A DNA stretch of 55,493 nucleotides from an uncultured Rickettsiales bacterium (GTDB lineage Bacteria > Myxococcota_A > UBA796 > UBA9615), in contig CAZBKF010000002.1 in NCBI GenBank assembly GCA_964492355.1, forward strand, positions 1-55,493, given 5' to 3'. The position numbers and the translations under genes are program-made. Below the pieces are notes generated by a model. That model ran no database searches and was not told the origin of the DNA. It saw only the letters and a program-made list of their open reading frames with translations. Shown here piece by piece: positions 8,184 to 54,500 of the stretch (within the stretch, counting starts at the first letter, position 1; each line of letters begins with the position of its first letter).

Positions 8184-8561
8184 ATGAAGACGGTTTCGAA
8201 CAGACCCTCCTGGCATCGTCGAGTCCGCTGGCTCGCGTCGATCCTGCTCGTGTTGGCGGCCACGCTGTCCATCCATCTCGCCGGCACCGGCGACGGCCAG
8301 GCCCAGGAGCTCAGCGGGACCTCCGAAGAGGAGCTGTCCCCGGGCATCAAGCTGCGGATCCAGTCCTGCGGCTACGACAAGCCCCGGTTCATTCCGCTCA
8401 GCGACGACGACGACTCGGCCGACGACGACGACGACACCACCGCCGGAGACGACGACTCCGGTGACGACGACGACACCGGCGACGACGACGACTCCGGCGA
8501 TGACGACGACGACTCCGGCGACGACGACGACTCCGGCGACGACGACGACTCGGGGTCCTGA
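8184..8561 (+). CDS. Small membrane-anchored/secreted protein with a C-terminal (DDDDSG)n poly-Asp tail
   Basis: ATG at 8184: MKTVSNRPSWHRRVRWLASILLVLAATLSIHLAG. The tail is DDDDSADDDDDTTAGDDDSGDDDDTGDDDDSGDDDDDSGDDDDSGDDDDSGS. It ends 16 nt upstream of the kinase gene. Confidence 0.65.
   Translation: MKTVSNRPSWHRRVRWLASILLVLAATLSIHLAGTGDGQAQELSGTSEEELSPGIKLRIQSCGYDKPRFIPLSDDDDSADDDDDTTAGDDDSGDDDDTGDDDDSGDDDDDSGDDDDSGDDDDSGS
8400..8555 (+). repeat. Coding (GAC)n-based microsatellite-like tandem repeat
   Basis: Reiterated gacgacgacgac-tcc/acc-ggc units encode the poly-Asp tail. Confidence 0.9.
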
Positions 8562-8576
8562 GGCTTTTCGCACCCG

Positions 8577-13353: not shown

Positions 13354-14202
13354 ATGTCCGAGTCCTCTCGGTCGGACGCCCAGGGGCGCTCGGCCAGCTA
13401 CCGCATCGAGGATCTCGACGCCGAAGCAGAGCTTCGTCGACTCGAGGCCCAGGTCCGCTTGGTGGTGCCCACCGAGCATCGTCTCTTGAAGGAGATCGGC
13501 GTTCGGCCCGAGTCGACGTTCGTCGACGTCGGCTGCGGCCCCGGCTTCTTCGCTGAGCGCGCGGCCCGAGAGCTGCTCGACAGCGGCGCCCGGGGCGGCC
13601 GGATGATCGGCGTGGATGTGGACGAGAAGCTGATCTGGCTCGCACGCAAGCGAGCTGAGGATCTGCGCCTGCCTCTGGAGTACGTGGTCGGGGCCGGCGC
13701 GGAGATCCCGCTGGACGACGGCGTGGCGGACGTGACCTACGCGCGCTTCCTGTTTCAGCACCTCGAGCATCCGATGGACGTGCTGACGCAGATGGTCCGA
13801 ATCACCCGTCCCGGCGGCCTCGTGGCGATCGTGGACACGGACGACGGCAGCCTGGTCATGCACCCCGAACCCGTCGGGTTCCGGCGCCTGGTGGACGCCA
13901 GCGGGCGCGCCCAGAACGCCCGGGGCGGAGACCGGCGAGTGGGCCGCAAGCTCAAGCGGTATCTGGCTGCGGCGGGCCTCGAAGACCCAGGCACCAAGGT
14001 GCACGCGTTCACGAGTGAAGACGTGGGCGTCGATCCCTTCATCGAGATCACGGTTGGCTTCAAGGCCGGGGTCCTGCGCCCGCCGTTCATCACCGCCGCG
14101 GAGATCCAGGAGACTGTCGACGACCTGGACCGTGTGCGGAACACCCCAGGGTTCTTTGGCCACGCGCTCGGCTACCTCGCGTGGGGGCGGAAGCCCACGT
14201 GA
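13354..14202 (+). CDS. Class I SAM-dependent methyltransferase
   Basis: Motif I VDVGCGPGFF, then IGVDVD and a LVIVDTD-like motif (LVAIVDTD). GGAGGG RBS 6 nt upstream of the ATG. Confidence 0.8.
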   Translation: MSESSRSDAQGRSASYRIEDLDAEAELRRLEAQVRLVVPTEHRLLKEIGVRPESTFVDVGCGPGFFAERAARELLDSGARGGRMIGVDVDEKLIWLARKRAEDLRLPLEYVVGAGAEIPLDDGVADVTYARFLFQHLEHPMDVLTQMVRITRPGGLVAIVDTDDGSLVMHPEPVGFRRLVDASGRAQNARGGDRRVGRKLKRYLAAAGLEDPGTKVHAFTSEDVGVDPFIEITVGFKAGVLRPPFITAAEIQETVDDLDRVRNTPGFFGHALGYLAWGRKPT

Positions 14203-16343
14203 CCCCAGCGGGGAAGGACCCCTGGCTCGAGTCCGAGCCTGAGCTGAGCGCGCGCCTGCTGCGGCCGATGCTGCGGTTCTACGAGAAGCGCTGGGGGCGG
14301 AGCTCCCTCGAGCAGTTCGCCAGCCGCATGGGCACGACGCTCGAGGTTCTCCAGGACAAGGACCGCTGGTTCTCCGTCGAGCGTTTCCTCGCCTTCATCC
14401 GTGCGATGGCGGCCGACACGGGAGACCCGGACATCGCCTACAAGGCGGGCCGCGCCTTCGTGGAGCCGGGGATCATCGGCGTCGAGGGGTACCTGATCCG
14501 CGCCCTGCTGACCCCTCGCGCGGTCTACGAGCAGGCGGCCGTGATCAGCGCGCGGTACTCACGGGTCACGGACTGGAAGTTCGACGTCCAGAGCCGCAAC
14601 AGAGCCACCGTGACCTTCCGCCCCAAGAGCCTGGACAAGGACGACTGGCACTTCTGCCGCAACCGGATCGGCACCCTCGAGGCGGTGCCCCTGGCGTTCG
14701 GGTTGCCCCAGGCCCACGTGGAGCACCCGGAGTGCCTGCACGACGGCGGCGAGAAGTGCGTCTACCTGCTGCACTGGACGAACCTGTCTCGGTGGATCCG
14801 CCCGGCCCTCGGGCTCGCCGTGGTCTGCCTGCTGGTCGGAGCCGGTGCGGCCCTCTCAGGGGCCAGCTTCGGTCTGCCGGTGGCCCTGGCGGGGGGCGTG
14901 CTGGGCGCGGGGGCGACCCTGGGAGCCTTCGCCGCGAGCCGGCGCATCGTGACCCAGTCGGCCGAGATCGGGGACGGCCGCGTCGAGACGATGCAGACGC
15001 TCCTGGAGGAGAACAAGCGGCGCGTCGAGCAGCTGCTCCTGCTCCAGGCGGTGAACGAAGAGGTCGCCCGGCACCTCGAAGAGGAGCCCTTGATCGACGC
15101 CGTCCTGGACACGCTGGCCCGCTCCAGCACCTGGGAGCGCGCCATGGTGATGCTCGTGGACGAGGACGCCGGGTTCCTCCAGGACGCCCGGGTCCGGGGC
15201 TTCGCCGAGCCGGCCGCGAAGCGCCTCGGGGCGTTGAGGATCTCCCTCGCCCCGGACGGCGACGACGCCCGGCTGTTCGGCCACATCGTGCGCGACGGCA
15301 ACGCCGTGCTGATCGAGGACGTGGCCGAGTACGCGACGAACCTGAAGCCGGAGAACCGCAAGCTCCTGGAGGATCTGGGGAGCAGCTCACTGGTGGCGGT
15401 TCCGGTGGAAGCCCAGGGCGAGAAGCTGGCGCTCATCATCGTGGACCGGGTCGCCTCGGAGGTCCCCCTGGACACGAAGGACCGCGACCAGCTGCGGTCC
15501 GTGGCGGCGGCCCTGGGCAAGGCGCTGTCCAACGCGCGTCTCTTCGGGCGGGTGCGCCGCGAGCTGGCGAAGAACCAGAAGTTCACCCACTTCCTGCCCC
15601 CTCCGATCGTCGCGAAGATCCAGGACGACCCCGAGGCGGCCCTGCTCCTCGGCGGCACCCGGAAGTCGATGGCGGTGATGTTCTGCGATATCGCCGGCTT
15701 CACCCCGCTCACCGCGAGCTGCCCTCCGGAGGAGGTCGTGCGCGGCCTCAACGCCTGGTTCGCGATCTCGGATCCCGCCATCGAGGCGTGCGGGGGCATC
15801 GTCGACAAGCGCATGGGCGACGGGATCCTCGTGGTGTTCCTGGAGGAAGACAGCCCCGGACGTGATGGCCGACACCCGGTCGAGCGGGCCGCGGCCGCTG
15901 CGGTGGCCATGAGCCAGTCTCTCGAGGCGGCGGGCGCAGCCCTGACGAAGGTCGCTCCCGCGTTCGAGGGCATGAAGGTGCGCTGGGCCGTGCACTACGG
16001 CGAGGTGATCGCCGGCAACCTCGGCTCCCACAGCCGCATGGAGTACACCGTCATCGGCGACGCCGTGAACACCGCCTCCCGACTCGAGGAGCTCACCCCC
16101 GCCGACTCCGCCTGGTTCACCGGCGAGGCGGTCAAGGCGGTGCCCGGCCTGCTCACGAGCGCGGTGTTCGAGCAGGAGGTCACGCTCCGGGGCCGGGACA
16201 CGAGCACCGAGGTCTGGTCCATTCCCCTGGACGCGGCGGCCACCGCGACGGGCACCTGGCAGGCGGAAGACCTGGTGGGGTCGGCCACGGCCGCGGTGCT
16301 GACCTCGATGACGCTGCCGCCCATCAAGGACGACGAAGGCTAG
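14199..16343 (+). CDS. V4R-like sensor / TM / GAF / class III adenylate (or guanylate) cyclase
   Basis: The N-terminal domain ends HPECLHDGGEKCVYLLHW, which is V4R-like. TM helices and a GAF-like region follow. Cyclase motifs are MAVMFCDIAGFTPLT, GDGILVVF and EYTVIGDAVNTASRLE. GTG at 14199 overlaps the methyltransferase stop (GTGA); the track start at 14181 is an alternative. Confidence 0.85.
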   Translation: MTPAGKDPWLESEPELSARLLRPMLRFYEKRWGRSSLEQFASRMGTTLEVLQDKDRWFSVERFLAFIRAMAADTGDPDIAYKAGRAFVEPGIIGVEGYLIRALLTPRAVYEQAAVISARYSRVTDWKFDVQSRNRATVTFRPKSLDKDDWHFCRNRIGTLEAVPLAFGLPQAHVEHPECLHDGGEKCVYLLHWTNLSRWIRPALGLAVVCLLVGAGAALSGASFGLPVALAGGVLGAGATLGAFAASRRIVTQSAEIGDGRVETMQTLLEENKRRVEQLLLLQAVNEEVARHLEEEPLIDAVLDTLARSSTWERAMVMLVDEDAGFLQDARVRGFAEPAAKRLGALRISLAPDGDDARLFGHIVRDGNAVLIEDVAEYATNLKPENRKLLEDLGSSSLVAVPVEAQGEKLALIIVDRVASEVPLDTKDRDQLRSVAAALGKALSNARLFGRVRRELAKNQKFTHFLPPPIVAKIQDDPEAALLLGGTRKSMAVMFCDIAGFTPLTASCPPEEVVRGLNAWFAISDPAIEACGGIVDKRMGDGILVVFLEEDSPGRDGRHPVERAAAAAVAMSQSLEAAGAALTKVAPAFEGMKVRWAVHYGEVIAGNLGSHSRMEYTVIGDAVNTASRLEELTPADSAWFTGEAVKAVPGLLTSAVFEQEVTLRGRDTSTEVWSIPLDAAATATGTWQAEDLVGSATAAVLTSMTLPPIKDDEG

Positions 16344-21090: not shown

Positions 21091-21094
<4 letters not shown>
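19970..21094 (+). CDS. Cytoplasmic PAS sensor histidine kinase (NtrB-like)
   Basis: PAS-like N-terminus, H-box GMAHEIRNPLGGI, then N/G boxes (LLRNGWQA, DDGPGI, GSGLGL). Confidence 0.85.
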
Positions 21095-22550
<1,456 letters not shown>

Positions 22551-22554
<4 letters not shown>

Positions 22555-27985: not shown

Positions 27986-29752
27986 CTATCCCCCCGCCGC
28001 GGCCATGCGCGCGATGCGGTCCAGGGTGGGCGAGCGGTCGGGCCACCGCGAGCGCATGTGATCGAGCACCTCCCGGGCTCGCCCGAGTTCGGCCCGGTGC
28101 AGGAACACATCGAACGCCAGGGCGACGTGGGGCAGGGAGTCGGGCTCCAGCAGCAGCAGCCGCTCCGCCATCTGCTCCCGGTCCGAGGCGAGGGCGCGCC
28201 CTTCACCGAGGTGGAGCTCCGTCCACAGGCGCCAGTACAGGAGCTCCGGCGCGTCCGGCTCCAACACCTCGAGCTCCGCGAGCAGCAGTTCGGCCTGGTC
28301 CCGCTGGCCGAGGCGCGCGAGCTCCGAGGCCAGCACCAGGGCCGAGGCCGGATCGCTCGACGCCTCAGCGGGTGCGCGCTCCCGGGCTCGGGTCAGGGAC
28401 GTCGTGTCGAACAGGTCCAGCGACTCGATGATCGCCTGCCGGACGGGGCCGTAGGTGCGCCAGTGCTCCAGCGGATGCACGAACTGCAGCGTGGTGACGT
28501 GCACGCCCCGCACGCAGCCCAGGTTCAGGGCGCGCAGGGGCTGTCCCTCGACCACCAGATCCATCTCCAGCGTGAAGCAGCGCCCCAGATCCGCCGGCAG
28601 CCGCGGGGCGAGGGCCATCCGTCGGGGGAGCACGATCGCTCCGGATCGCTCCAGCTCGGCGACCCAGACCGCTTCGACCTCGGGCCGGGATGCGGGCTCG
28701 TGCTCCTCCATCCAGGCCGTGGTGGTCACGCGCGCGGCCCCGGTGAGGGAGCGCCAGCTGGGGGCTCCGTCGGCCTCGGCCACGTCCCAGGTGCGGGGGG
28801 GATGGATCGCGTACCCGGCCTGGGGGAACGGGGCCGGATCCGCTGCGGGCAGCACCGTCCCGATGAGCCCCAGCTCCGAGGCGGCGGGCAGGCCGACCGT
28901 CGTGATGAAGACGAGGGCGACCGACGCCCCCGCGCGCGTCAGCCTCCGGGCCGTCATGTCGATCGTCTCGACGTGGGACGAGGGGAGCGTCAGCCCCAGC
29001 GTGGCGCCCACCGCCAGTCCGCCGAGGTGGCAGAAGTTGTCGACGAAGTCGGACCAGATCGCCCCGAACAGGAGGAAGTAGACGATGAAGGGGAAGATCG
29101 ACCACCCGAACCGCTTGCGCGCCGTCTCGGGCATCCAGGTCCCGTAGCGCCAGCCCAGGGCGAGGGCCGCTCCGAACAGGCCGAAGGTGATGCCCGAGGC
29201 GCCCACTGTGGGCAGGGGCGTGGCGACGCTGGAGACGATCATGGAGCCGATGGCCGAGGCGACGATCACCAGCAAGGTGCCCGTGCGGCCCAGCAGCGAC
29301 TCGACGTTCCACCCCACGTACAGGACGTAGAGCAGGTTCGGGATGATGTGGGACCAGCCGGCGTGAAGGAGCGAGGCCGTCAACAGGCGCCACCACTGTC
29401 CCAGCTCGACCTGGTGGGGGAGCGACTTCGCCCCCTGCTCGACGAGTACCGCTCCAGACAGGCTGTCTCCCGTCGCGAGTTGCCAGGCGTAGACCACCAG
29501 CAGCAGCGAGACGGTGGCGAGCGTGACCCAGGCGGGCTGCCGGAAGGTGAAGCGGGCCATGAACCGGCCCTGCTGGTCATCGATCAGATCCTGGAAGATC
29601 TCCATCGAGTCAGCCGACACGAACTCGGTTCCGGTCGCCGGTGGGAACCGGACCTGCGCGTGGCGGGGCACCACCCCCCGACGCACCGCGTCCTCGAAGT
29701 CCTCGTACGACAGCGTCTCGATCGACCCGTCCGGGTGGCGGATCTCGACCAA
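27986..29752 (-). CDS. Rhomboid-family intramembrane serine protease with GYF-like N-terminal domain and long C-terminal TPR-like extension
   Basis: Rhomboid core: WWRLLTASLLHAGWSHIIPN, catalytic Ser in GASGITFGLFGA and His in FCHLGGL. About 300 aa of extra C-terminal sequence carries helical repeats. Confidence 0.85.
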   Translation of the reverse strand: MVEIRHPDGSIETLSYEDFEDAVRRGVVPRHAQVRFPPATGTEFVSADSMEIFQDLIDDQQGRFMARFTFRQPAWVTLATVSLLLVVYAWQLATGDSLSGAVLVEQGAKSLPHQVELGQWWRLLTASLLHAGWSHIIPNLLYVLYVGWNVESLLGRTGTLLVIVASAIGSMIVSSVATPLPTVGASGITFGLFGAALALGWRYGTWMPETARKRFGWSIFPFIVYFLLFGAIWSDFVDNFCHLGGLAVGATLGLTLPSSHVETIDMTARRLTRAGASVALVFITTVGLPAASELGLIGTVLPAADPAPFPQAGYAIHPPRTWDVAEADGAPSWRSLTGAARVTTTAWMEEHEPASRPEVEAVWVAELERSGAIVLPRRMALAPRLPADLGRCFTLEMDLVVEGQPLRALNLGCVRGVHVTTLQFVHPLEHWRTYGPVRQAIIESLDLFDTTSLTRARERAPAEASSDPASALVLASELARLGQRDQAELLLAELEVLEPDAPELLYWRLWTELHLGEGRALASDREQMAERLLLLEPDSLPHVALAFDVFLHRAELGRAREVLDHMRSRWPDRSPTLDRIARMAAAGG

Positions 29753-29759
29753 CTGGGCC

Positions 29760-31511
29760 TCAGCCGTCCAGCCTGCGGAGGAGCTCGGCGGGTCCCGAGC
29801 CGGGCAGCGGGGCCAGACCGGGCTTGCGGTTGTCCCCCCCGAGCGCGCCGACGAGGGCCGTAGCGAGGCGTTCGTGAGCCGCAGCCCGTCCCGGCGCCCG
29901 ATGATCCAGCGCCGCCCGGAGCTTGTCGTGCACCACCCTGCGGGTCTCGCTCTCGGGACGGCTCGGAGCGCCCCGGGCCACCGCCACCTCGGCCTCGCGC
30001 ACCCGCCCGCCGTGCAGCAACACCCGGATCCGAGCGGGAATGGGGAACGTCAAGGCGGCCAGATCGTGCTCCGACAGGTCCGGGCCCCGACGCCGCGCCG
30101 GGGTCTCGAACGTCGGTCCGAGCAGCCTCTGGAGGCCGCGCGCGGCGAGGTCCGAGAGCTTGCCGATGCCCCGGTTGAGCAGCTCCGTGGGCTCTTCGCC
30201 GTCGAGCTCCTGGAACCGCTCACCACCCAGCGCCATGGGCAGCTCGGCGACGGACAGGCCCGCCTCCAGCCCGCCGCCGGCCCGGCACGCCGCGGCCAGC
30301 AGCGGCACCGCGCCGACCCCCGCGAGGAGCTTGTCGATGCCCACCCCGACCTTCAGCGCGTTCCAGGTCTTCAGGGTGAGGCGCCAGTCGTGGTGCAGCC
30401 AGATCCGCGTCGCCAGCTCGGCGATGTCGTGCCCATGCTGCTCCAGGGAGCGCTCGCTCAGGTCGCTGGACCGGATCGAACCGGCGATCAGACGCAGCGC
30501 GAGGCTGCGGGCCACCGAGAAGTTGATCGACACCGGGGTGAGGGGCGCATCGGCCCCCAGGAGCCGCTCCATGGCCATCGTCAGGAGGCCCGCGTCCACG
30601 TCGATCCGCATGACGTCGTCGGCGCGGAGGGCGCGCCCCTCTTCGGCCTCGAAGTCCTCGGCGATCAGATCGAGGGCCTCCAGCGACGTGGCGAGGTACG
30701 CGCAGCCCGGGACCGCCTTGATCGCCAGCGACCAGGTCAGCCACGCGGTCTTCGTCGGATCGTGGGCCGGAAGACCCGTCAGCCAACCCCGCAGGGGACG
30801 TCCCTGGGCGTGCACCGCGAGGAAGTCCGACTCACCGTCGAGCAGCCCCAGGGGCCCGTTCATCCCCGCCTCGGCCAGCTTGGCCATGCGCCAGCCATCG
30901 AGGAGGGGACGAGCCGCCGTCAGCACCTTGCCGCCGCTGCCGAAGAGCCCCCAGTCCACGTGGGGAGCCTGGGCCAGGGCCAGGGCGATCCCGTGGGCGA
31001 GCCGCTCTGCGTCCAGGCCCCGGAGCATGCCGTAGGCGAGCGCTCCCCCGACCGAGTGGATGAAGGACCAGGCCTGTCCGTTCTGACGACCCGCGATGCA
31101 GAGCCCGCCGAGGCGCGCCATGACCTCGTTGGCCGCGAGCTGGGCCCGCAGGGCGTCGTCCCAGGTCAGCCCCGCCTCCGCAGCGCCGAGCCAGGACGCC
31201 CAGACGGCGCTGTGCCCGGTGTGTCCGCAGAGCATCCAGTCGTCGTAGTCGTGGGCCATCGACAAGGTCGAGCCCGCCAGGAGGGCACCCTCCAGGGAGA
31301 GGTCGGCCAGCCCGGGGGCCACCACCAGGTCGCCGGAGCCGAGGCCTCGGGCCATCGCCAGCACCGGGCCGACGTCGTCGCTGTCCAGGCCTGCCGCAGC
31401 GGCGCCGAAGACGGACGCGGCCTGCCAGCGGAGGCGCTCCAGCACCCCGGGAGGGGCGTGGTCCAGCGAGAGGGCGCAGGCCCACTCGGCGAGGTCGAGG
31501 ATGGTGCTCAC
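29760..31511 (-). CDS. MmgE/PrpD-family protein (2-methylcitrate dehydratase / cis-aconitate decarboxylase superfamily), C-terminally extended
   Basis: GTG at 31511 overlaps the upstream stop (GTGA). LAEWACALSLDHAPPGVLERLRWQAASVFGAAAAG and MAHDYDDWMLCGHTGHSAV match the family's N-terminal and HD(F/Y)DD motifs. The 49 upstream codons of the track ORF overlap the Pnkp-like gene and are rejected. Confidence 0.75.
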   Translation of the reverse strand: MSTILDLAEWACALSLDHAPPGVLERLRWQAASVFGAAAAGLDSDDVGPVLAMARGLGSGDLVVAPGLADLSLEGALLAGSTLSMAHDYDDWMLCGHTGHSAVWASWLGAAEAGLTWDDALRAQLAANEVMARLGGLCIAGRQNGQAWSFIHSVGGALAYGMLRGLDAERLAHGIALALAQAPHVDWGLFGSGGKVLTAARPLLDGWRMAKLAEAGMNGPLGLLDGESDFLAVHAQGRPLRGWLTGLPAHDPTKTAWLTWSLAIKAVPGCAYLATSLEALDLIAEDFEAEEGRALRADDVMRIDVDAGLLTMAMERLLGADAPLTPVSINFSVARSLALRLIAGSIRSSDLSERSLEQHGHDIAELATRIWLHHDWRLTLKTWNALKVGVGIDKLLAGVGAVPLLAAACRAGGGLEAGLSVAELPMALGGERFQELDGEEPTELLNRGIGKLSDLAARGLQRLLGPTFETPARRRGPDLSEHDLAALTFPIPARIRVLLHGGRVREAEVAVARGAPSRPESETRRVVHDKLRAALDHRAPGRAAAHERLATALVGALGGDNRKPGLAPLPGSGPAELLRRLDG

Positions 31512-32770
31512 GACGTCCAGGTCTCCCAGCGCGCGACGCCCTCGACCCAACTCCGGGACGCCTGCACGCTCTCGAAGGTCCGCTCGGGCCAGCGCATCGC
31601 GCACAGCGCTCCGCCAAAGACGGCCCCCAGGTCGATGTCCGCGGTGTTGTGGCGCCACTCGGCGCGCCGCACCGGCACGTGTCCATGCACGACCGCCGGC
31701 TCCCCAGAATAGTCAGCCGCCCAGTCGAGCCGCTCGGGATATCCGTCGATCTCCCGGCCCGTCGTCTTCCCGTACAGGCAGAAGGCCCGCACCTTCGGGC
31801 CGACCCGGCCGTGGTCTCGCTCCTCGAGCCCGGCGTGGGTCACGATGAGCGCGCCGCCGTCCAACCACAGGTAGGGAGGAGCGCTCTTCATGAGGCGATC
31901 GAAGCGGGCCCGCAGCTCCCGATCCTCCGCATCCGTCAGGGCGTTCCACTCGGCCACCGTGCTGCCGAGGCCGCCGGACACCGTGACGCCCCGCCCCTGA
32001 AGCCAGCGCCACAGCTTGTCGTCGTGGTTGCCGGGCACGAACAGCGCGCGGCTGTCCTCCAGCCAGGGGAGCACGAGGCGCAGCACGCCGACCGAGGAGG
32101 GGCCCCGGTCCACCAGGTCCCCCAGGAAGACGAGGCGCCGTCCCTCGGGATGCAGTCCGTCCACGTAGCCGAGCTGGTCGAGCAGCGTCTCGAGCTCGGC
32201 CAGGCAGCCGTGCACGTCTCCGATGATGTCGAAGGGCCCGCTCACGTCCAGGCGGAGCGGCGCCAGGGGCTCCCGCTCGACGATGACCTCGTCCAGGTTG
32301 GAGGCGTCGAGGTGGTGCACCCCGTCGTAGCGCTCGTCATCCAGGTCTGAGGTGAGCCGATCCGCGAGCTCGCGATGGGTCCGCAGGACCGAGTCCGGGA
32401 CCTGGCGGGCGCGGGCTTTGTTGCGCTCGCGCAGCGTCTCCAGCTTCGCGTCGAACACCACCAGGTGGACGGGGAGGCGAGCGGATCGAGCGATGCGCCG
32501 GAACTCGGCCCGTCCTTCCTTCTCGAGGTTCGTCGCGTCCACCACCGTGATCCGGCCGTGGGCGAGGCGCGCTTCGCAGAGCTGGTGAACCAGCGCGAAC
32601 GTCTCCTCGTTGATGTCCTGGTTGTCGGGGTCGTCGCAGAGCAACCCCCGCACCGCGTCCGAGGACACCACCTCCGTCGGTGAGAACCAGCGCTGGGCGA
32701 AGCTGGACTTGCCGCTCGCCGCGGGTCCGCACAGGACGACGAGGGACGGCTCTGGGAGTCGGAGCGGCAC
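31508..32770 (-). CDS. Pnkp-type polynucleotide 5'-kinase / 2',3'-phosphatase (kinase + metallophosphatase only, no ligase domain)
   Basis: GTG start. The P-loop (LVVLCGPAASGKSS) and SSDAVRGLLCDDPDNQ are T4-Pnk-like kinase features. The calcineurin-type motifs GDVHGC, GDLVDRGP, GNHD, THAG and VHGHVP follow. From memory, the order and spacing are colinear with the first ~420 aa of bacterial Pnkp. Confidence 0.75.
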   Translation of the reverse strand: MPLRLPEPSLVVLCGPAASGKSSFAQRWFSPTEVVSSDAVRGLLCDDPDNQDINEETFALVHQLCEARLAHGRITVVDATNLEKEGRAEFRRIARSARLPVHLVVFDAKLETLRERNKARARQVPDSVLRTHRELADRLTSDLDDERYDGVHHLDASNLDEVIVEREPLAPLRLDVSGPFDIIGDVHGCLAELETLLDQLGYVDGLHPEGRRLVFLGDLVDRGPSSVGVLRLVLPWLEDSRALFVPGNHDDKLWRWLQGRGVTVSGGLGSTVAEWNALTDAEDRELRARFDRLMKSAPPYLWLDGGALIVTHAGLEERDHGRVGPKVRAFCLYGKTTGREIDGYPERLDWAADYSGEPAVVHGHVPVRRAEWRHNTADIDLGAVFGGALCAMRWPERTFESVQASRSWVEGVARWETWTS

Positions 32771-32839
32771 CGGGGGACGTGTCTAGCAGCGATCCGGGGA
32801 GAGCACGACACCGATGGCAGCCAGCGGCCGCGCCACGCC

Positions 32840-32845
32840 TACAAT
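32840..32845 (+). promoter_or_regulatory. Possible -10 box (TACAAT) 6 nt upstream of the GTG of the CHAT-STAND gene
   Basis: A near-consensus hexamer in the 81-nt divergent intergenic region. No SD is present before either divergent gene, and no good -35 was found. Confidence 0.2.
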
Positions 32846-32851
32846 CGACGG

Positions 32852-35800
32852 GTGCAGAGCCTGGAACTCCACGTTCGTGCAGACGGGGACGTGCTCGCCT
32901 TTCACGTCGTGGATCGTGAGCGGGTGTCCACGGGGACCCCGCAGGGCACGTCCTCGCTGGGGCGGAGCAACGCCCGCGCCCGGGGAGCGCGCCTCGAGCA
33001 GCAGATCGCCGATGCATGCGCTCGGGGAAAGCTGAACGCGGCCGACCGAGAGCACATTCGGGCGCGAGCCCAGCTCCTCCACGATCTGCTGGTTCCCGCC
33101 GCTCTGCGTCCGACGCTCCGGGCATCGGTGGGGTGCCCGCTGTGGCTGCGTTTGCGGGGGTGGTCGAGCGAGCTGCCCTGGGAGTGGCTGCACGATGGCG
33201 TCGGGTACTGGTCCGACCGCTTCGCGGTAGGGCGCGACAGAGGCCGGGGTCGGCCCCGTCCGCTCCCGTCGCCTCCTCGACGGCTGCTGGTCCTGGGCGA
33301 CGAGGCCACCCTCGGCAGGGCCCGGCTCACCACCCTGCGGGGCCGGCTCCAGGAGCGGGGCATCACCACCCGGGTCCAACGAGGTCCGCTCCTGCGAGGG
33401 GACCTCCGGGTCGCGCTCCAGGCCGCCGACATCGTGCACGTCGGGGCAGCCGCTACCGGCCAGGGGCTCGCCTGCGCGGACGGCGCCTTCGGTCTTGGAG
33501 ATCTGCCCGAGGGAGGACCCTGGCCACAGCTCCTGGTGCTGGCTGGCTCGGGCACGCGGGGATTCGGTGAGGCCGCTCACCGGGCGGGGGTGCCCACCGT
33601 CATCGCGACGACGACGCCCCTGGCGAGGGGCGCGGGTGCGTCCGTGGTGGCTGCCCTCTACGCCGGGCTGCTGGATGGAGCCTGCGTGGGGGAGGCGCTG
33701 ACCGCTGCGCGTCGGGACGATCCGGAGGACATCGGGGCCGTCCCGTGGCTCCTCCTCGGTGACCCGTCGGCCATCCTCGGGCGGCCGCGGCCCCCCGCTC
33801 CCCAGGACGGAGCCGCCTGGGTGGGGGTGTGGGTCGACGCCAAGGTGAGCGATCCGGACAAGGCAGCCTCGATCCGGGGCCCCATCCAGGAGCTCGTCCG
33901 GGCGGAGGGACAGCGGCTGGGCCTCGAGCCCCAGGTGTCGGCGGCGGGCCAGGCGGTCCTGTTCGGACTCCCTCCGAGTCGGTTCGGAGATCGCACCGGG
34001 GAGGCTGGGTTGGGCCTCGCCGAGCGGCTGCGGGACACCCTCTCCGAGGATCGCGTGGCAGGTCTCGGGGGGCGGTTCGGCGCGACGCTCGGAGTGGGGC
34101 TCGCGGTGGGGCCGGGAGCCCCGAGCCGGGCGGTGGAGCTCGCGCGTCGAGCGGCGCCGGACGTGTTGATCGTCGACGGGGATGGCAAGGAGTCGAGCCG
34201 CCGGGAGCGGCGGGTCTTCATCGAGCTGAGGCGCCCTGCGTCGGACGGAACCCTCGCCTGGGAAGCGCGGCCGGGGTCGGTGGCTCCGCCCAGGCCCCTG
34301 CTGGGACGGCGGGACGAGCTGCACGCCCTGCAGCGCGGGTTCGACGAAGTGAAGCGCCGTCACGAGACCCGGCTCGTGCTGATCACCGGGTCCGCGGGGA
34401 GCGGGAAGTCGGCCCTCGTGCAGGGATTCGGTCGCCGCCTGGCCGACCGGGGCGTAGAGGTTCAGACCCTCGAGCTCACCGAGCTCGGAGGCCCCACCGA
34501 GCGCTACCCCTCCGAGTCGGCGACCGCGGCCGTGCTGGTCTACGAGGACGCACACCGGCTGGGGGACCGACAGTTCGGAGAGCTCCTGCACCGTCTCGCC
34601 CGGCCTCGGCCTCCGGCGTTGGTCATCGTCACGCTCCGGGCGGACTCGCCACCGCGCCGACTGCGCCTCGCCCAGCTCCAGGACGCGGCGACCGACAGCA
34701 TCCCCCTGCCGGCTCTCTCTGCCGCGGACGCCTCGGCGTTGGCGAGACAGCTCCTGGGGCGCGCGAACCTGTCCCGGGACGAGGAGCGGCTCCTGGGGCT
34801 GGCGGACGGCAATCCGCTGCTGATCCGGTTGCTCGCGGGCCGACTGCGGGGGGCCGGGGTCCAGGGCGACGAGCCGCCTGCGCTCGTCCGCGGGATGATC
34901 ACCGACCGCCTCGCGGGGGCCGGGGCCGAGGTGGCTCGGGTGCTCGAGGGCGTGGCCGTGCTCGGGCAGCCTTGCACCACGGACGCGCTGGAGGCGTTGC
35001 CGGGGGTGACGCCGAGCGCGGTGGCCCAGGCCGCAGCGGAGGGGTGGCTGACTCTGCGGAGTGAGATGCTCGGGGGTCGCCGGGTCGCTCGGTGCCGCCT
35101 GCGCGACCGGATGATGGCCCGCTACCTGGACGCGCTGGTCGACACGGACCGCGGCCCCGAGCTCCACCAGGCCGCGTTTCAGTGGCACAGCAAAGTGGGA
35201 AGCGGCGCCTCGAAGCGTGCTCGCCACGCCCTGCGCTCCGCGGCGCCCCTGCAAGCCGTCGCGCCTCTCTGGGAGGCGATCCTCGCGGGTGGCGGGGAGG
35301 AGCGGTACACCGAGCACATCGACGCTCTGGAGCGCCTGCTGGCGACGACCCCCGAGACGGAGATGCCCGTGGATGCCCCGACGTCCGCCCAGGTCCGGGC
35401 CGTGCGCCATGGGCTGCCAGGGCTGTCCGTCGGTGGCTACCGGGTCCGGGGCCTCATTGCGGTCGACCGGCTGGCCACGCGGTTCCTCGTGGACAGGCCC
35501 GAGGGCGAGCTCGAGCTCCGGCTGGTGCACCCCGAGCTGGTCCCGAACCCGCCGTCCCGTCGCCGCTTCGAGGAGCACCTGCAGCGGCTGCGGGCCCTGA
35601 ACCTGCCGTCGCTGGTGCCCGTCGGCGACTCGCTGGAGATCGACGGGCAGCTCGTCCTGCCTGCTCGGTGGTTCGCCGGTGAGAGCACCCGAACACACCT
35701 GGCGCGGCACGGCGCCCTGGCCCCGGCGCAAGCCGCGGCGGTCGCTGGTGAGGTCCTCGGACTGCTGGCGGCGCTGGCTCAGCGCAGTCCAGAGACGGCG

Positions 35801-35902
35801 TCGGCACTGGACCTGCGCCCCGAGGGAATCTGGTTGGGGGACGACGGGCGGGTCCGGGTGGAGCACCTGACTGCGCTGCAGGGGGGCCGCTGTGGGCGCT
35901 GA
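32852..35902 (+). CDS. CHAT-like / cyclase-like / AAA (STAND, AAA_16-type) ATPase / helical / protein-kinase-like N-lobe giant protein, interrupted by a frameshift
   Basis: CHAT hallmarks are ELPWEWLHD, ADIVHVGAA, QLLVLAGSGT, VPTVIATT and WLLLGDP. Walker A is ITGSAGSGKS and Walker B is VLVYEDAH. The C-terminal kinase-like part (YRVRGLIAV...LDLRPEGIWLGDDGRVRVEHL) stops at TGA 35900-02, in the middle of the kinase fold. Confidence 0.8.
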   Translation: MQSLELHVRADGDVLAFHVVDRERVSTGTPQGTSSLGRSNARARGARLEQQIADACARGKLNAADREHIRARAQLLHDLLVPAALRPTLRASVGCPLWLRLRGWSSELPWEWLHDGVGYWSDRFAVGRDRGRGRPRPLPSPPRRLLVLGDEATLGRARLTTLRGRLQERGITTRVQRGPLLRGDLRVALQAADIVHVGAAATGQGLACADGAFGLGDLPEGGPWPQLLVLAGSGTRGFGEAAHRAGVPTVIATTTPLARGAGASVVAALYAGLLDGACVGEALTAARRDDPEDIGAVPWLLLGDPSAILGRPRPPAPQDGAAWVGVWVDAKVSDPDKAASIRGPIQELVRAEGQRLGLEPQVSAAGQAVLFGLPPSRFGDRTGEAGLGLAERLRDTLSEDRVAGLGGRFGATLGVGLAVGPGAPSRAVELARRAAPDVLIVDGDGKESSRRERRVFIELRRPASDGTLAWEARPGSVAPPRPLLGRRDELHALQRGFDEVKRRHETRLVLITGSAGSGKSALVQGFGRRLADRGVEVQTLELTELGGPTERYPSESATAAVLVYEDAHRLGDRQFGELLHRLARPRPPALVIVTLRADSPPRRLRLAQLQDAATDSIPLPALSAADASALARQLLGRANLSRDEERLLGLADGNPLLIRLLAGRLRGAGVQGDEPPALVRGMITDRLAGAGAEVARVLEGVAVLGQPCTTDALEALPGVTPSAVAQAAAEGWLTLRSEMLGGRRVARCRLRDRMMARYLDALVDTDRGPELHQAAFQWHSKVGSGASKRARHALRSAAPLQAVAPLWEAILAGGGEERYTEHIDALERLLATTPETEMPVDAPTSAQVRAVRHGLPGLSVGGYRVRGLIAVDRLATRFLVDRPEGELELRLVHPELVPNPPSRRRFEEHLQRLRALNLPSLVPVGDSLEIDGQLVLPARWFAGESTRTHLARHGALAPAQAAAVAGEVLGLLAALAQRSPETASALDLRPEGIWLGDDGRVRVEHLTALQGGRCGR
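35879..35887 (+). other. G6 homopolymer / formal X_XXY_YYZ heptamer (caG GGG GGC) at the frame switch inside the kinase-like domain
   Basis: Frame 2 reads ..LTALQGGRCGR*. Frame 1 from the same G-run reads GGPLWALTEMGALRGRVGSIAPELLEG.., which continues the kinase fold. One extra G or a -1 slip would fuse the two. Confidence 0.7.
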
Positions 35903-35907
35903 CCGAG

Positions 35908-36231
35908 ATGGGGGCGCTCCGAGGTCGGGTCGGGAGCATCGCGCCCGAGCTCCTGGAAGGCCACCCGCATCCCGCGAACGGGGTCTGGTCGGTGGGTGCG
36001 CTGCTCTGGGAGCTCCTGACGGGCGCGCCGCTGTTCGCCGGTCGTTCGATCAGGGAGGCCTCAGCGGCCGTTCGCCAGGCGGACCTGACCCCTGCCTTCG
36101 ACCAGGTCGGACAGTCCCACCCGGCGTTCGCTCCGCTGCTGCGGCGCACGCTGGTCCGGGATCCCGATGCCCGGCCGCAGGCTACCGAGCTGGCCGCGGA
36201 CCTGGCCCGGATCAGCGCGGAGCTCGGATGA
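35908..36231 (+). CDS. Protein-kinase C-lobe fragment: out-of-frame continuation of the CHAT-STAND gene (frame is open upstream to at least 35779)
   Basis: SIAPELLEG is APE-like. GVWSVGALLWELLTGAPLF is the DxWSxG helix F, and RDPDARP is the subdomain XI motif. Confidence 0.75.
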   Translation: MGALRGRVGSIAPELLEGHPHPANGVWSVGALLWELLTGAPLFAGRSIREASAAVRQADLTPAFDQVGQSHPAFAPLLRRTLVRDPDARPQATELAADLARISAELG

Positions 36232-37468
36232 CCTTCGTCTGAGCTTCGCCAGCGCCGAGGGCGCCGATGCCCGCCAGTCGCGGCAGCTCGGCCGCCATCG
36301 CACCGCGGATCTCCAGGCTGTGGTGCGCGGCGAGGCCATCGGCCAGATCGAGCTCGGCGTGGCCCAGGACCCTCACCGCGATCTCCCACCCCGCGGCGGT
36401 TCCGGATATCCCGTGCCCCAGCACCTGGGGGGAGAACCGTACGGTCCCGTCGTCGGCGACGAAGGTGGCCCCTCCGGCGTGTTCCGGAGGCAGCTCGGTG
36501 GGCAGGAGCAGCACCGCTTCCGCCGCCGGCTGCAGCATGGCGGGCTCCAGGAACGCCGCCTGGTGCGCCCGGAAGGGGCAGCCAGGGACGGTCGAGGAGC
36601 GGATCTCGCCCACGATCCACGCCGCCGAGAGCCGCCCCAGGGACTCGGCCGTCGGAGCCTCCGCCGCCAGCGGCAGCCCCACCTCGAGTGCCCCCAGCAC
36701 GCCGGGGTGTCCATACACCAGGGTGTGGCGCACGTCGGTGGGCCAGGGCGCGTCGGGGTCTGCCTGCAGGGCGAGCACTCCGCGCCGACGCAGCGCGTCG
36801 ATCGTGTCCGGGAGCAGCGGGTGGCTGCCCCTCTGGATGACGGCGACCGGATCTCCCACATCCAGCTGGTCGAGCGAGGCGGTGCTGCCCCACTCCCCCA
36901 GGGTCTGCTGGGCGCGGTGCCGCAGCCGCCGCTCGGCGTCGGGCACGAGCAGGTCCACCTGGGGAGGCAGTCCGTCCCGATCCCGGCTCCGTCGCTCCAG
37001 CGCTCCAGCTGTGTGCGCCAGGACGTACAGGGTCTCCAGGTCGACGTCCGCGGGGTTCACGAGCAGGGACCAGGCTGACTCGGAGCGGCTGTCCCGAAGA
37101 CGCGCCTCCAGGAGGTGGGTCGCGTCGGTCCAGCTCAGGGGCTCGAAGCCCGCTGTCCCCGCCCGCCAGACCACCGGGGCGGAGAGTCGGCCGAGGCGAT
37201 GGAGCTGGGGTCGGCTCATCCCCCGAAGCGTCGAGACGTCCGCGAGCCGGGCGGGATCCAGGGCGTCGGCGGTGACCCGGGGCAGCCGCCGCAGCCTGCG
37301 ATCGCACAGGTGGCTGCCCTGCAGCACGTCGTCGCGCAGTCCCCCCGAGCCCAGGCTGCAGTCGTTGCACACCCCGTGCTTCAGCACGTCCCACGCGAAC
37401 CGCAGCCGGGCCCGGTTCGTCCAGAGCGCTCCGAAGGCCGGGGCGACGAGTCGGTCAGGTCGTGGCAC
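36212..37468 (-). CDS. Shortened YdeP/FdhF-like molybdopterin oxidoreductase alpha-subunit homologue
   Basis: The N-terminus (LKHGVCNDCSLGSGGLRDDVLQGSHLCDRRLRRLPRVTADALDP...GRLSAPVVWRAGTAGFEPLSWTDA) and a C-terminal block (AVLLLPTELPPEHAGGATFVADDGTVRFSPQV) resemble the ends of ~760-aa Fdh-alpha-like enzymes. This protein is only 418 aa. It lies adjacent and divergent to fdhD. Confidence 0.55.
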   Translation of the reverse strand: MPRPDRLVAPAFGALWTNRARLRFAWDVLKHGVCNDCSLGSGGLRDDVLQGSHLCDRRLRRLPRVTADALDPARLADVSTLRGMSRPQLHRLGRLSAPVVWRAGTAGFEPLSWTDATHLLEARLRDSRSESAWSLLVNPADVDLETLYVLAHTAGALERRSRDRDGLPPQVDLLVPDAERRLRHRAQQTLGEWGSTASLDQLDVGDPVAVIQRGSHPLLPDTIDALRRRGVLALQADPDAPWPTDVRHTLVYGHPGVLGALEVGLPLAAEAPTAESLGRLSAAWIVGEIRSSTVPGCPFRAHQAAFLEPAMLQPAAEAVLLLPTELPPEHAGGATFVADDGTVRFSPQVLGHGISGTAAGWEIAVRVLGHAELDLADGLAAHHSLEIRGAMAAELPRLAGIGALGAGEAQTKVIRAPR

Positions 37469-51533: not shown

Positions 51534-54500
51534 ATGCCGTCCTGTCTGCGTTCTACCCTCGCCACCATGGCGGGCCTCTTCATTCTCGCGCCTGCCGCTG
51601 CCCTCGCTCAGGGTGGCCCCGATGCCGGCGGACACATCTGGAACACCACGACGTACGACTTCGTGGTGCTCGACCCCGCGAGCAGCGGTTCCGGCACGGC
51701 GCTGGCGCTGACGACCTCGGACCAGGAGTTCGACGTCACGCTGCCCTGGCAGTTCGCGTTCTACGGGAACAGCTACTCGACCATCACCGTCGGTGAGAAC
51801 GGCGCCATCGCCATGGGCGGCGGGGCCAACCTCTTCAACGGAAACGGCTCGCTGCCCGACACGTCGACCGACTCGGCAGACATCGCCGTGTTCTGGGACA
51901 GCCTGGACGCGTGGGACAGCGGTGCGAGCGCTGCCGTCGGCGGCATCTTCACCTACGACGACACGGCGAACTCGCGCTTCATCGTCTCCTGGGAGAACGT
52001 CGGCTACAGCAGCGACAACACCCCGGGCGGTTCCTTCCAGGTGCACCTGATGGCTGACGGCACCATGTCGTTCCACTACGCGGACACCGACTTCGGTGGC
52101 TCCGGCGACTTCGGCGCGAGCGCCACCGTCGGCATCCAGGACTTCACCAACGGCACCGCCGATCAGGGCAACGCCCTGGAGATCTCGTACAACACGGCGA
52201 GCATCACCGACGGCGTCACCGCCTACGGCATCAGCTTCTGCGCCGACGGCGACGTGGACGGCTTCTACGACATCGCCTGCGGCGGCGACGACTGCGACGA
52301 CGCGGCGGCGGCGATCAACCCGGCCGCGGCCGAGACCTGCAACGACGGCATCGACCAGGACTGCAGCGGCGCCGACTCCCTGGACGACGTCGCCGCGGAC
52401 GGCGGCATCAACACCGACTGCGGCGGCGACGCCAGACACGAACTGGACGCGACGATCAACCCGCCCACCGCCGAGGTCTGCGACGACAGCATCGACAACG
52501 ACTGCGACGCGACCACGCCCGACATCTTCGACGCGGACGCGGACACCTACGACTGCGATGACGACTGTGACGACTCCGACGCCGCCGTGAACGCCGGCGC
52601 CACCGAGGTCTGCTCCGACGGCATCGACAACGACTGCGACGGCATCCCCCTGCTGTCCGACACGGACCTGGACGGCGACATCGCCATCGCGTGCGGCGGC
52701 ACCGACTGCGACGACTTCGACGCGTCCCTGAACACCCTGACGGACGCCGACGGCGACGGCTTCGACTCCTGCTCTGACTGCGACGACACGAGCGCCGTCT
52801 CGCTGCCCGGCGGCACCGAGGTCTGTGACGGCCTCGACAACGACTGCGACGGCATCGGCGCGGGCGTCGCCGAGTTCGGCGGCACGAACTCGACGAGCAT
52901 GTTCGGCCCCGGCTCGAACCGCGGCCGCGGTGGCATCTGGGCCATCACCTCGACCACCATCCTGAACAGCGTCGGCGCGCGCTTGGACGTGCCCGTCGGC
53001 TCCGACGTGGTCTTCGCGGTCTACGCGGGTCCCGCCACGGGCGTCGCGACCGGCCCCTCCGACTTCAGCCTGATGGCCACCGCCACCTACACCTCGGCGG
53101 CCGATGGCCTGATGGACCGCATGGTCGACATCGGCGTCACCCTGGACGCGGGCTTCGACTACGGCTTCATGTACTACTGGACCGACAGCGTCGGCTACGG
53201 CTACACGAGTGGGACCAGCTTCCCGATCGTGGCCCCGTTCGGCGGCCAGTACACCTCGGTCTTCGACTCGAGCAACAGCTCGCCCCCGGCCGTGGGCTCG
53301 GGCAGCACGAGCAGCACCCACTACTCGCTGATCCTCGGCGTGGGCGACGAGCTGGCCGACGCGGACGCGGATGGCGTCACGGCCTGTCTCGGTGACTGCA
53401 TCGACAGCGACGCCACGGTGAACCCGAGCGCCGTCGAGGTGTGCGACACCCTGGACAACAACTGCGACGGCAACACCGACGATGTCGACCTCGACATCGA
53501 CGGCGAGGTCGACGAGGCGTGCGGCGGCACCGACTGCAACGACGCGGACGCCGCGATCAACACCGCGGCCACCGAGGTCTGCGACGGCGTCGACGGCGAC
53601 TGCGACGGCCTCGACGACACGATGGACACGGACCTGGGCCCGCCGATCGTGGCGAACGCCCCCGAGACCCAGAGCAGCACCCCGGGCGCCGGGATCAGCG
53701 ACAGCAACCCGACCACGACGGACACCGTGACCTTCGCCACGGTGGGCGCGGTCACGGACATCAACGTGTCGGTGGACATCACCCACACCTGGGATGGGGA
53801 CATCGACATCGTCCTGACGGCGCCCTCCGGCAACTCGGTGACGCTGGCCGACCGGATCGGTGGCAGCGCGAACGACTACACGGGCACGACCTTCGACGAT
53901 GAGGCGACCGGCCCGATCACCGCGAGCTCCCCGCCGTACACGGGCACCTTCCAGCCCCAGAACGCCCTCAGCGCTCTCGACGGCGAGTCGGTCGCGGGTA
54001 CCTGGTCGCTGTCCATCACGGACTACGCGGGTGGCGACAACGGCACCCTGAACTCCTGGTCCGTGACCATCGAGTCCGGCTCGGGCGGCGCGGACATCGA
54101 CTTCGACGGCTTCATCGACAACTCGCTCTGCGCGACCATCGACGCCGACTGCGACGACACCGACGCCACGATCTACCCCGGCGCCCTGGAGATCTGCGGC
54201 GATTCGATCGACCAGGACTGTGACGGTGTGGACACCACGGGCGACGTGGACACCGACACGTACGCCTCGGTCGAGTGCGGTGGCACCGACTGCGACGACA
54301 ACAACATCCTCGTCTTCGACGGCTCGGACAACGACGGCGACTCGGCCCTGGGCTGCCAGGACGACTGCGACGACACCAACGCCGCGGTCGGCCCGTTCGC
54401 GACCGAGGTCTGCAGCGACGGCATCGACAACGACTGCGACGGCATCGCCTTCGAAGGCGCCGACGTCGACCTGGACGGCGAGACCGACTGCACCGACTGC

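Follow-up and report, generated by a model that had tools for sequence, protein, structure and literature searches.

Multidomain proteins in which a class III nucleotidyl cyclase is combined with a STAND-type AAA_16 NTPase and a TPR or LuxR region are found in actinobacteria and myxobacteria, e.g. Rv0386, Rv1358 and Rv2488c of M. tuberculosis. The gene analyzed here spans positions 32852-36231 of a complete 55,493-nucleotide (nt) contig from an uncultured bacterium (CAZBKF010000002.1 in GCA_964492355.1; this whole stretch is referred to as the window). In two reading frames it specifies a protein that resembles those cyclases in having a class III cyclase fold directly N-terminal to AAA_16, together with the GR-x-E-L lead-in, Walker A and B motifs and a helical arm carrying Gly-Asn-Pro (GNP). 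Unlike in those proteins, the cyclase part is invisible by sequence and has no metal-binding Asp pair, no TPR/LuxR output is present, and a CHAT domain and a kinase domain have been added at the N- and C-termini, respectively. A Hanks-type kinase and AAA_16 are also joined in one polypeptide in the PknK-like kinase-AAA_16-TPR proteins, which occur in the same bacterial groups and gave weak matches to our query (P0006, P0008 and P0009, from Sorangium and metagenomes). In the present family, however, the kinase is C-terminal and degenerate, and the identity is 25-32% over 14-23% of the query.

CHAT proteases that act on sigma factors provide a further comparison. In the Csx29/Csx30/CASP-sigma system of type III-E CRISPR, a CHAT protease frees a sigma factor of the extracytoplasmic function (ECF) type by cleaving its inhibitor (PMC10028731), and Myxococcus xanthus has a TPR-CHAT anti-sigma factor, DdvA, with DdvS (PMC11506125). 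A comparable arrangement, i.e. a CHAT gene beside a sigma-like gene and a putative inhibitor, is found only in the long-clade relatives described below. In DdvA/DdvS and Csx29 the His-Cys dyad is preserved and gating is by TPR domains, RNA or periplasmic signals, whereas in the present family a STAND NTPase would be the gate, and in the clade of the window protein the dyad as well as the sigma pair is gone. With respect to the kinase, a review (PMC12599244) describes bacterial pseudokinase families (ActPs1-3, GLW, CP1, DLHK and DYD), some of which, like the present domain, have substituted ATP-binding Lys and metal-binding Asp with the HRD Asp retained; here, too, conservation extends over the family and is not that of a sporadic mutant. 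Neither the motif set ELR/ALDLRPEG/EHLT nor a fusion to CHAT plus cyclase-like and STAND domains is among its architectures, which by description sets our protein apart; AAA, STAND and cyclase go unmentioned there, and none of three words beginning with "chat" is shown to be the CHAT domain. A literature search for the four-domain combination found no description. The building blocks (STAND NTPases, CHAT proteases, cyclase-homology domains and bacterial pseudokinases) are all known and their combination is not; we regard the locus as a documented curiosity of pseudoenzyme evolution, not as a new kind of system.

Our analysis demonstrates that the locus encodes a member of a very rare family of STAND-type (AAA_16) NTPases, confined to one uncultured lineage. 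With evenly balanced confidence, we propose that the protein of the short clade, to which the window copy belongs, is a non-catalytic nucleoside triphosphate (NTP) switch scaffold that descends from a protease/kinase signalling ancestor and was recently truncated or split in this genome. An N-terminal region is followed by CHAT, then by a class III cyclase-like domain, the P-loop NTPase, a helical/winged-helix arm and a Hanks-type kinase domain (Table 1). Pfam, run on the reconstructed protein of 1125 amino acids (aa), returned three matches that all exceed the curated cut-offs: Pkinase (PF00069; aa 910-1114; 36.2 bits, cut-off 31.7; E 5.6e-9), AAA_16 (PF13191; aa 483-647; 35.2 bits, cut-off 32.6; E 2.2e-8) and CHAT (PF12770; aa 71-288; 31.7 bits, cut-off 24; E 1.4e-7). 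Over nine family members, AAA_16 and Pkinase were each matched in all nine and CHAT in eight, the ninth being an N-terminally truncated gene call, and Guanylate_cyc (PF00211) in none. The full-length AlphaFold2 model has a predicted local distance difference test (pLDDT) score of 82 and a predicted template modelling (pTM) score of 0.75, with contiguous, confident domains: aa 1-95 (strands at aa 4-35, helices at aa 38-91), the CHAT α/β domain 96-302, cyclase-like 322-474, P-loop 487-620, arm 621-855 and kinase 860-1125. The four-domain architecture that had been put forward from the sequence alone (hereafter the original prediction) is thereby borne out, by Pfam for CHAT, AAA_16 and Pkinase and by the AlphaFold fold for the cyclase-like part, and the CHAT, NTPase and kinase motifs that it quoted were all located where it had placed them.

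The original prediction also described a clear CHAT fold whose catalytic His and Cys are replaced, and both points were confirmed by Pfam and by alignment to P0004 and P0014, two relatives that keep the canonical motifs. The best CHAT E-value in the family is 2e-28. At the His site of the window protein (IVHVGAAA) the second His is replaced by Ala, and at the Cys site (LVLAGSGT) the Cys is replaced by Ser; the long-clade residues in the same alignment columns are H[IL]AAHV and LNGC. Throughout the short clade, the His position is A, D, L or P, and the Cys position is S or E, mostly Ser. The domain belongs to CHAT by profile and fold but lacks the cysteine-protease dyad.

The cyclase-like domain could be recognized only by its predicted structure. 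Pfam gave nothing for this segment at E<=10 in three members and at E<=0.1 in any of the nine, a PDB sequence profile search found no match, and hhalign against four genuine cyclases yielded a probability of only 3% (E 0.016). AlphaFold2, given an alignment of eight sequences, nevertheless produced a confident model of aa 296-492 with the topology β-α-β-β-α-β-α-β (pLDDT 78, pTM 0.74), and the top 50 Foldseek matches in the PDB were class III adenylyl/guanylyl cyclase catalytic domains in 50 of 50 cases (E down to 3.5e-7, TM 0.55-0.67), among them Cya2 (2w01), Rv1900c, Ma1120, Rv1625c, CyaB, soluble adenylyl cyclase and soluble guanylyl cyclase. From hhalign and secondary structure, G366-Q367-AVLFGL would stand opposite G-D-GILVVF, so that the second metal-binding Asp (Asp2) corresponds to Gln367; relatives have G, A, Q, E or D in this column. 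At the position of the first (Asp1), the end of β1, the window protein has D329, which no relative shares. In the VNxAxR helix, AVELARRA aligns by eye and by secondary structure with AVNTASRL, with Asn changed to Glu (E429) and Arg kept. The domain is degenerate in the long and short clades alike. The earlier proposal of a class III cyclase fold without the metal-binding Asp pair is therefore upheld for the fold and for the change of Asp2 to Gln, whereas it finds no match at the sequence level and is complicated by D329. As an internal positive control, the window also contains a protein with an arabinose-binding-like region, a GAF domain and a class III cyclase domain (Table 1), in which the canonical metal Asp residues (FCDIAGFT, MGDG), the Asn and the Arg are present.

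The kinase-like domain is complete and bilobal in the model, with a Foldseek TM of about 0.8 to PknB/PknA, and its residue register was confirmed by family-profile alignment to PknB. The Gly-loop position reads AVDRLA in the window and GVGRLG in P0015, P0016 and P0018. The β3 Lys has become Arg889 in LELRLV, the catalytic loop ALDLRPEG keeps the HRD Asp (D987) with Gly992 in place of Asn, and the DFG position is occupied by H-L-T inside VEHLT, with His1005 in place of Asp; the APE motif is kept. The HRD Asp is invariant in the short-clade alignment. A kinase-like domain without intact motifs had been predicted, and the losses of the Gly-loop, Lys, Asn and DFG Asp agree with that, but the HRD Asp is retained and the DFG equivalent is H-L-T, not E-H-L. 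The domain is thus a kinase by family and fold that lacks the catalytic residues other than the HRD Asp and is spread over two frames, a frameshift lying between the N-lobe with the catalytic loop and the activation segment with the C-lobe. Since the catalytic residues are missing, the protein should not be filed as a CHAT protease, a cyclase or a kinase.

As for the NTPase, the motifs point to an AAA_16-type STAND protein with its core features present. The Walker A and Walker B motifs are intact, as had been claimed, and so is the GxP motif (ADGNPLL). G513, G516, G518, K519, D566 and R596 are invariant in all members, and G653-N654-P655 is invariant too; an arginine that closes the sensor strand is kept in the short clade. 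The nSTAND1, nSTAND_NTPase5 and NACHT profiles gave weaker matches than AAA_16. The arm is modelled as helices (624-714), a hairpin (733-750) and further helices (753-852) with pLDDT mostly 85-95, and the hairpin is assigned as winged-helix-like on the basis of the full-length model. Foldseek with that model returned kinases alone, leaving the STAND arm unmatched. Pfam detected no C-terminal TPR, WD40 or LRR sensor; the C-terminus consists of the helical arm followed by the kinase fold.

When 1.84 billion representative proteins were scanned exhaustively with HMMER, seven further members were recovered, namely P0002, the fragment P0003 and P0014-P0018, and the remaining matches were generic kinases with 400 bits or less. 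With P0004 from the first search, the family amounts to about nine lineages, all metagenomic and all at one chromosomal position. A scan of the GTDB species-representative genomes recovered no member, its only match being an unrelated kinase, and a word-indexed search with the N-terminal 488-aa profile gave no further relatives. The long clade (P0004, P0014 and P0017; 1254-1304 aa) has the CHAT motifs H[IL]AAHV and LNGC, and the kinases of P0004 and P0014 are intact in the GxGxxG loop, ALK, HRD and DFG. P0017 (L016, 8001-11765) is intermediate: its CHAT dyad is intact and its kinase has Lys changed to Leu and HRD to HRA. The short clade comprises the window protein, P0002, P0003, P0015, P0016 and P0018 (1111-1148 aa), with ELR for VAIK, ALDLRPEG for HRDxKPxN and E-H-L-T for x-D-F-G, and with APE kept. 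This dead state is common to five to six lineages whose mutual identity is only 42-78%. The N-terminal 245 residues of the family, including an intact His, recur in P0049, a further protein of 476 aa, where they are joined to a P-loop region of unrelated sequence; this may represent a different architecture or a chimeric contig.

The two clades also differ in gene content. A sigma-like gene and a partner gene are found at all three long-clade loci and at none of the six short-clade loci, and the window contains no homologue of either. The pair sits between the upstream operon and the CHAT gene and is divergent from the latter. The sigma-like protein (191-258 aa) has Sigma70_r2 and r4_2 in the right order. 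A gasdermin-like CHAT substrate was also considered for these two extra genes and was rejected, because they encode the sigma-like protein and a small soluble partner. By analogy to the CHAT systems described above, this arrangement suggests for the active relatives a pathway from a STAND-gated CHAT protease or kinase to a sigma factor.

We suppose that the ancestor was an NTP-gated signalling protein that worked through its CHAT protease, its kinase or both on the neighbouring sigma/partner pair, and that the short clade subsequently lost both this pair and the catalytic residues. Its protein would now be a nucleotide-dependent conformational switch or an oligomerising scaffold. Dimerisation, which modules of this kind normally provide, would come from the cyclase-like domain, and the conserved loop and activation segment of the pseudokinase would bind partners. 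In this genome, the product is cut at residue 1016, inside the pseudokinase, so that the copy encodes a protein in two pieces or else is a loss-of-function allele of very recent origin. Since versions of one syntenic gene range from intact through partly degraded (P0017) to fully dead, the family presents an unusually clean evolutionary series, and the coincidence of the loss of the sigma-like pair with the loss of catalysis makes it a natural experiment in the conversion of a multi-enzyme signalling protein into a pseudoenzyme scaffold. It also provides a testable hypothesis for the active relatives, i.e. that a STAND-gated CHAT protease or kinase acts on the sigma/partner pair. Practical consequences are limited, since only a few uncultured marine-type Myxococcota-like lineages have the family and the window copy is broken.

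A protein of about 1125 aa encoded by 32852-36231 had been described for this locus, which holds only as a two-frame reconstruction; no such single open reading frame (ORF) exists. The interval spans 3380 nt, which is indivisible by three. The forward-strand ORF ends with 1016 aa, and the terminal 114 residues are read in a second frame (35887-36231, containing PLWALTEMGALRGRVGSIAPELLEG). When the frames are connected at the G run 35882-35886, the length comes to exactly 1125 aa, implying that the original prediction had bridged the frameshift silently. The 1016-aa product comprises the N-terminal region, the dead CHAT domain, the cyclase-like domain, the STAND NTPase, the helical/winged-helix arm and a kinase-like domain cut off just past the degenerate DFG position; the Joint Genome Institute (JGI) gene call P0001 covers the 3' 770 codons of this ORF. 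At the frameshift point, where the orthologous protein reads LQG-R-PLW, one base has been deleted, a C when compared with the nearest relative L010 (CAGGGGCGGCCGCTGTGG in L010 versus CAGGGG-GGCCGCTGTGG in the window). Two metagenome contigs from JGI, L001 and L002, carry the identical deletion; elsewhere they depart from the window sequence at 1 and 4 positions, respectively. Because it is common to three assemblies with different single-nucleotide polymorphisms, we take the deletion to be a real allele and not a one-off assembly error.

Outside the frameshift, both frames remain open and no other lesion was observed. An ATG 5 nt past the main TGA opens a 107-codon ORF, which is a separate JGI gene call with a Pkinase match; from its position, translation of the C-lobe piece by re-initiation at this ATG is possible. 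Programmed -1 frameshifting at G_GGG_GGC was also considered and is disfavoured, since the downstream RNA structure is no better than chance (z = 0.07) and the site is a recent deletion. At the 5' end, the sequence TA[CGT][AG]AT lies 6-7 nt before the start codon in L010, L003, L012 and L007 (TAGACT in L014), with the variants TACAAT, TATGAT and TAGAAT across orthologous loci. The TACAAT of the window is probably the promoter of a leaderless mRNA, judging by this conservation, which also supports 32852 as the start. A generic sigma-70 promoter and terminator scan found nothing, and an Rfam scan of the window gave no match. If the transcript is leaderless in L003 as well, the annotated 10-residue N-terminal extension of P0002 is spurious.

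To evaluate selection, the ratio of nonsynonymous to synonymous substitution rates (dN/dS) was computed by the Nei-Gojobori method for the window gene against L010 (78% aa identity) and L003 (62%). Against L010 the ratio was 0.22 overall, with 0.20 for CHAT, 0.16 for the cyclase-like domain, 0.24 for the NTPase, 0.21 for the helical arm and 0.28 for the kinase-like domain; against L003 it was 0.33 overall, with 0.28, 0.36, 0.47, 0.23 and 0.36, respectively, and all these values are a rough guide only, as the G+C content at third codon positions (GC3) of about 0.9 in this genome constrains dS. Four neighbour genes gave 0.08-0.25 in the matching genome pairs; the dN of the protein is about twice that of its neighbours and clearly non-neutral. 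Pairs of short-clade proteins are on average 79% identical in the catalytic loop and 73% from the DFG-like position to APE, compared with 47% over the whole protein and 45% at the CHAT His site. Since the degenerate kinase loop is the most conserved part, the active-site region of the pseudokinase has gained a new constraint, whereas the CHAT site is merely dead. These comparisons support a dead state that is old and under selection, which would fit a pseudoenzyme scaffold. The proposal of an NTP-driven scaffold or sensor built from pseudoenzymes is accordingly sustained in its catalytic losses, its NTPase motifs and its selection, while the scaffold or sensor role itself stays an inference.

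Besides the constraint on dS, several observations weigh against the scaffold reading. In the nearest relative, L010, 8 nt have been lost independently after EALSAA, in the stretch that separates CHAT from the cyclase-like domain (at ~4700-4705 of contig JAANSZ012130074.1, GCA_024449875.1), so that its annotation is left with the C-terminal 690 aa, i.e. P0003. Since two of the three closest short-clade lineages are disrupted, there is room for relaxed selection, dispensability and decay in this sub-clade. The cyclase residues were mapped from the weak hhalign match (E 0.016, 3%) and the secondary-structure register, not from a superposition. Walker B reads E-D instead of D-D/E, and NTP binding, hydrolysis and oligomerisation are predicted from motifs. 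On the side of the presumed ancestor, the sigma-like matches are under the Pfam gathering scores (E about 1e-4, two domains), and the soluble partner of ~200 aa has the HxxxCxxC zinc-finger motif of anti-sigma factors in only one of three loci.

The disruption in L010 bears most directly on the possibility that the window copy is a recent pseudogene, in which the deletion removes the pseudokinase C-lobe, the product is non-functional or degraded, and the family is perhaps dispensable in the sub-clade. The frameshift is real and present in three assemblies, the elevated dN would agree with it, and the window protein and P0003 are without the GxGxxG loop that other short-clade members have. Nevertheless, both frames are otherwise open with no more lesions, the segment past the frameshift has a dN/dS of 0.19 against L010 and retains coding GC3, the -10-like box and start codon are conserved, and the ATG 5 nt past the stop could express the C-lobe piece. 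The low dN/dS and GC3 past the frameshift imply that the inactivation, if any, was very recent; we take this explanation seriously but consider it on balance doubtful. The opposite view, that the missing base reflects an error of sequencing or assembly and that an intact protein of about 1126 aa is really made, could appeal to the G-rich site (GGGGGG after the deletion) in DNA of 73-75% GC and to a possible origin of the three assemblies from related samples. It is quite unlikely, given that the contigs with the deletion differ at 1 and 4 other positions, as distinct haplotypes or assemblies would, and that in comparison with L010 a C between G runs was lost, which is not a homopolymer miscount.

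Other explanations concern what the protein would do. After losing all three enzyme activities together with the sigma-factor pair that it formerly controlled, it could have been kept by long selection as a purely non-catalytic NTP-driven machine whose dead CHAT and kinase folds serve as baits or docking platforms, like the integrated decoys of plant nucleotide-binding leucine-rich repeat (NLR) proteins, with the split pseudokinase working in two pieces; the surface ALDLRPEGIW / EHLT..GALRGRVG..APE would then be the binding site. This stronger form of the scaffold reading is unlikely. A role in defence against phage or in another conflict system, as its sensor or its effector, at which the original prediction had hinted, would be in line with the general recurrence of CHAT, STAND NTPases and kinases in defence, with PADLOC matches to the PD-T4-6, mad6 and MkoA models, and with a VapBC pair adjoining the long-clade locus L007. 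However, PADLOC-DB gave no full-length defence match: the matches are confined to the kinase domain, with 205 bits for the catalytically intact P0004 against 33 bits for the window protein, and the neighbouring genes have none. Moreover, the effector domains are dead, and in every lineage the gene occupies a fixed site among housekeeping-type genes (MmgE/PrpD, rhomboid, FdhD, MoaA, Mrp, MoeA), with no variable island. The hint is therefore not borne out, and such a role is very unlikely. It is extremely improbable that one of the seemingly dead modules remains active through non-canonical residues, e.g. atypical nucleotide binding by Arg889/Asp987 or a Ser hydrolase at the CHAT Cys position. 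The invariant HRD Asp, the persistence of the GxGxxG loop in P0015, P0016 and P0018, the catalytic loop being the most conserved kinase segment, and the Ser at the CHAT Cys position in most short-clade members would agree with such an activity, and SidJ is a precedent for a pseudokinase with a reported unusual activity (PMC6858067). The window copy, however, retains none of the Gly-loop, β3 Lys, Mg-binding Asn and DFG Asp, its kinase domain is split, and the CHAT His position varies (A/D/L/P), so that no alternative general base is conserved there.

Table 1. Coordinates of the features discussed in the text (window positions unless a locus is named; residue numbers refer to the reconstructed protein).
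Feature	Position	Strand	Residues or length	Remarks
-10-like box TACAAT	32840..32845	+		6 nt ahead of GTG start
ORF as it stands	32852..35902	+	1016 aa	GTG start at 32852, TGA stop at 35900-35902; GC3 0.86
N-terminal beta and helical region	32852..33136	+	aa 1-95	kept in both clades
CHAT (caspase-like) domain	33137..33757	+	aa 96-302	predicted catalytically dead
CHAT His site IVHVGAAA	33431-33454	+	aa 194-201
CHAT Cys site LVLAGSGT	33533-33556	+	aa 228-235
Class III nucleotidyl-cyclase-like domain	33815..34273	+	aa 322-474	no conserved metal-binding Asp pair
Asp2 register of cyclase-like domain	33947-33970	+		mapped by alignment
STAND/AAA_16 P-loop NTPase	34298..34711	+	aa 483-620	motif residue R596
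GR-x-E-L lead-in	34298-34321	+
Walker A GSAGSGKS	34388-34411	+	aa 513-520
Walker B VLVYED	34532-34549	+	aa 561-566
Helical lid, winged-helix-like hairpin and helical arm	34712..35416	+	aa 621-855	hairpin assigned from model
GxP motif ADGNPLL	34802-34822	+
Hanks-type kinase-like domain	35429..36231	+	aa 860-1125	degenerate, frameshift-split
Gly-loop position AVDRLA	35456-35485	+
β3 motif LELRLV	35510-35527	+	aa 887-892
Catalytic loop ALDLRPEG	35804-35827	+	aa 985-992
DFG position VEHLT	35858-35872	+	aa 1003-1007
Frameshift site	35882..35886	+		five G versus GGG CGG or GGC AGG (Gly-Arg) in orthologues
Shifted-frame ORF	35908..36231	+	107 codons	ATG start at 35908; activation segment and C-lobe (MGALRGRVGSIAPE)
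APE motif	35938-35949	+
Convergent neighbour	36212-37468	-		conserved; overlaps target 3' end by 20 nt
Pnkp-like divergent neighbour	31508..32770	-	420 aa	AAA_33 and Metallophos (Pfam)
MmgE/PrpD-like gene	29760-31511	-		upstream string
Long rhomboid protease gene	27986-29752	-		upstream string
Arabinose-binding-like, GAF and class III cyclase protein	14181-16343	+		internal positive control
Sigma-like/partner pair, L007 (sigma-like 9156-9932, partner 8473-9108)	8473-9932	- relative to CHAT gene
Sigma-like/partner pair, L016	6458-7869	- relative to CHAT gene
Sigma-like/partner pair, L017	6241-7501	- relative to CHAT gene

The gene order at every short-clade locus is rhomboid, MmgE/PrpD-like and Pnkp-like on the reverse strand, the target gene on the forward strand, a gene for a protein of ~410 aa on the reverse strand, and then FdhD on the forward strand followed by molybdenum-cofactor genes. 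The Pnkp-like and MmgE/PrpD-like genes overlap by 4 nt, and the upstream string is kept in all lineages examined. The convergent protein (391-418 aa) has no Pfam or PADLOC match, and its gene is found in synteny at all short-clade loci and probably also in L016. Adjacency to a Pnkp-like operon had been emphasized by the original prediction, and the divergent arrangement with a gap of 81 nt (32770 to 32852) is as described; however, no functional link can be derived from it, because the adjacency is synteny within one lineage and the Pnkp-like family is widespread on its own.

The Pnkp-like neighbour is composed of kinase and phosphatase only and does not belong to the Pnkp/Hen1 RNA-repair type. 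Its Streptomyces homologues (45-48% identical), named polynucleotide kinase-phosphatase, have an extra ligase domain (PF16542) that the window protein is without, and no Hen1 methyltransferase gene lies beside it, the genes downstream of it being the MmgE/PrpD-like and rhomboid genes. Its nearest named homologues come from metagenome-assembled genomes labelled "Deltaproteobacteria bacterium" and "Myxococcales bacterium". Elsewhere in the window, genes at 8577-12181, 21091-22554 and 51534-55493 specify a Ser/Thr kinase with a PEGA domain, a TPR protein, a sigma-54 enhancer-binding response regulator and a very large protein with MopE repeats and a proprotein-convertase P-domain. Further Myxococcota-type content includes TSP3 repeats and, in an orthologous contig, Omp85. 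This gene content fits a Myxococcota-like, signalling-rich genome.

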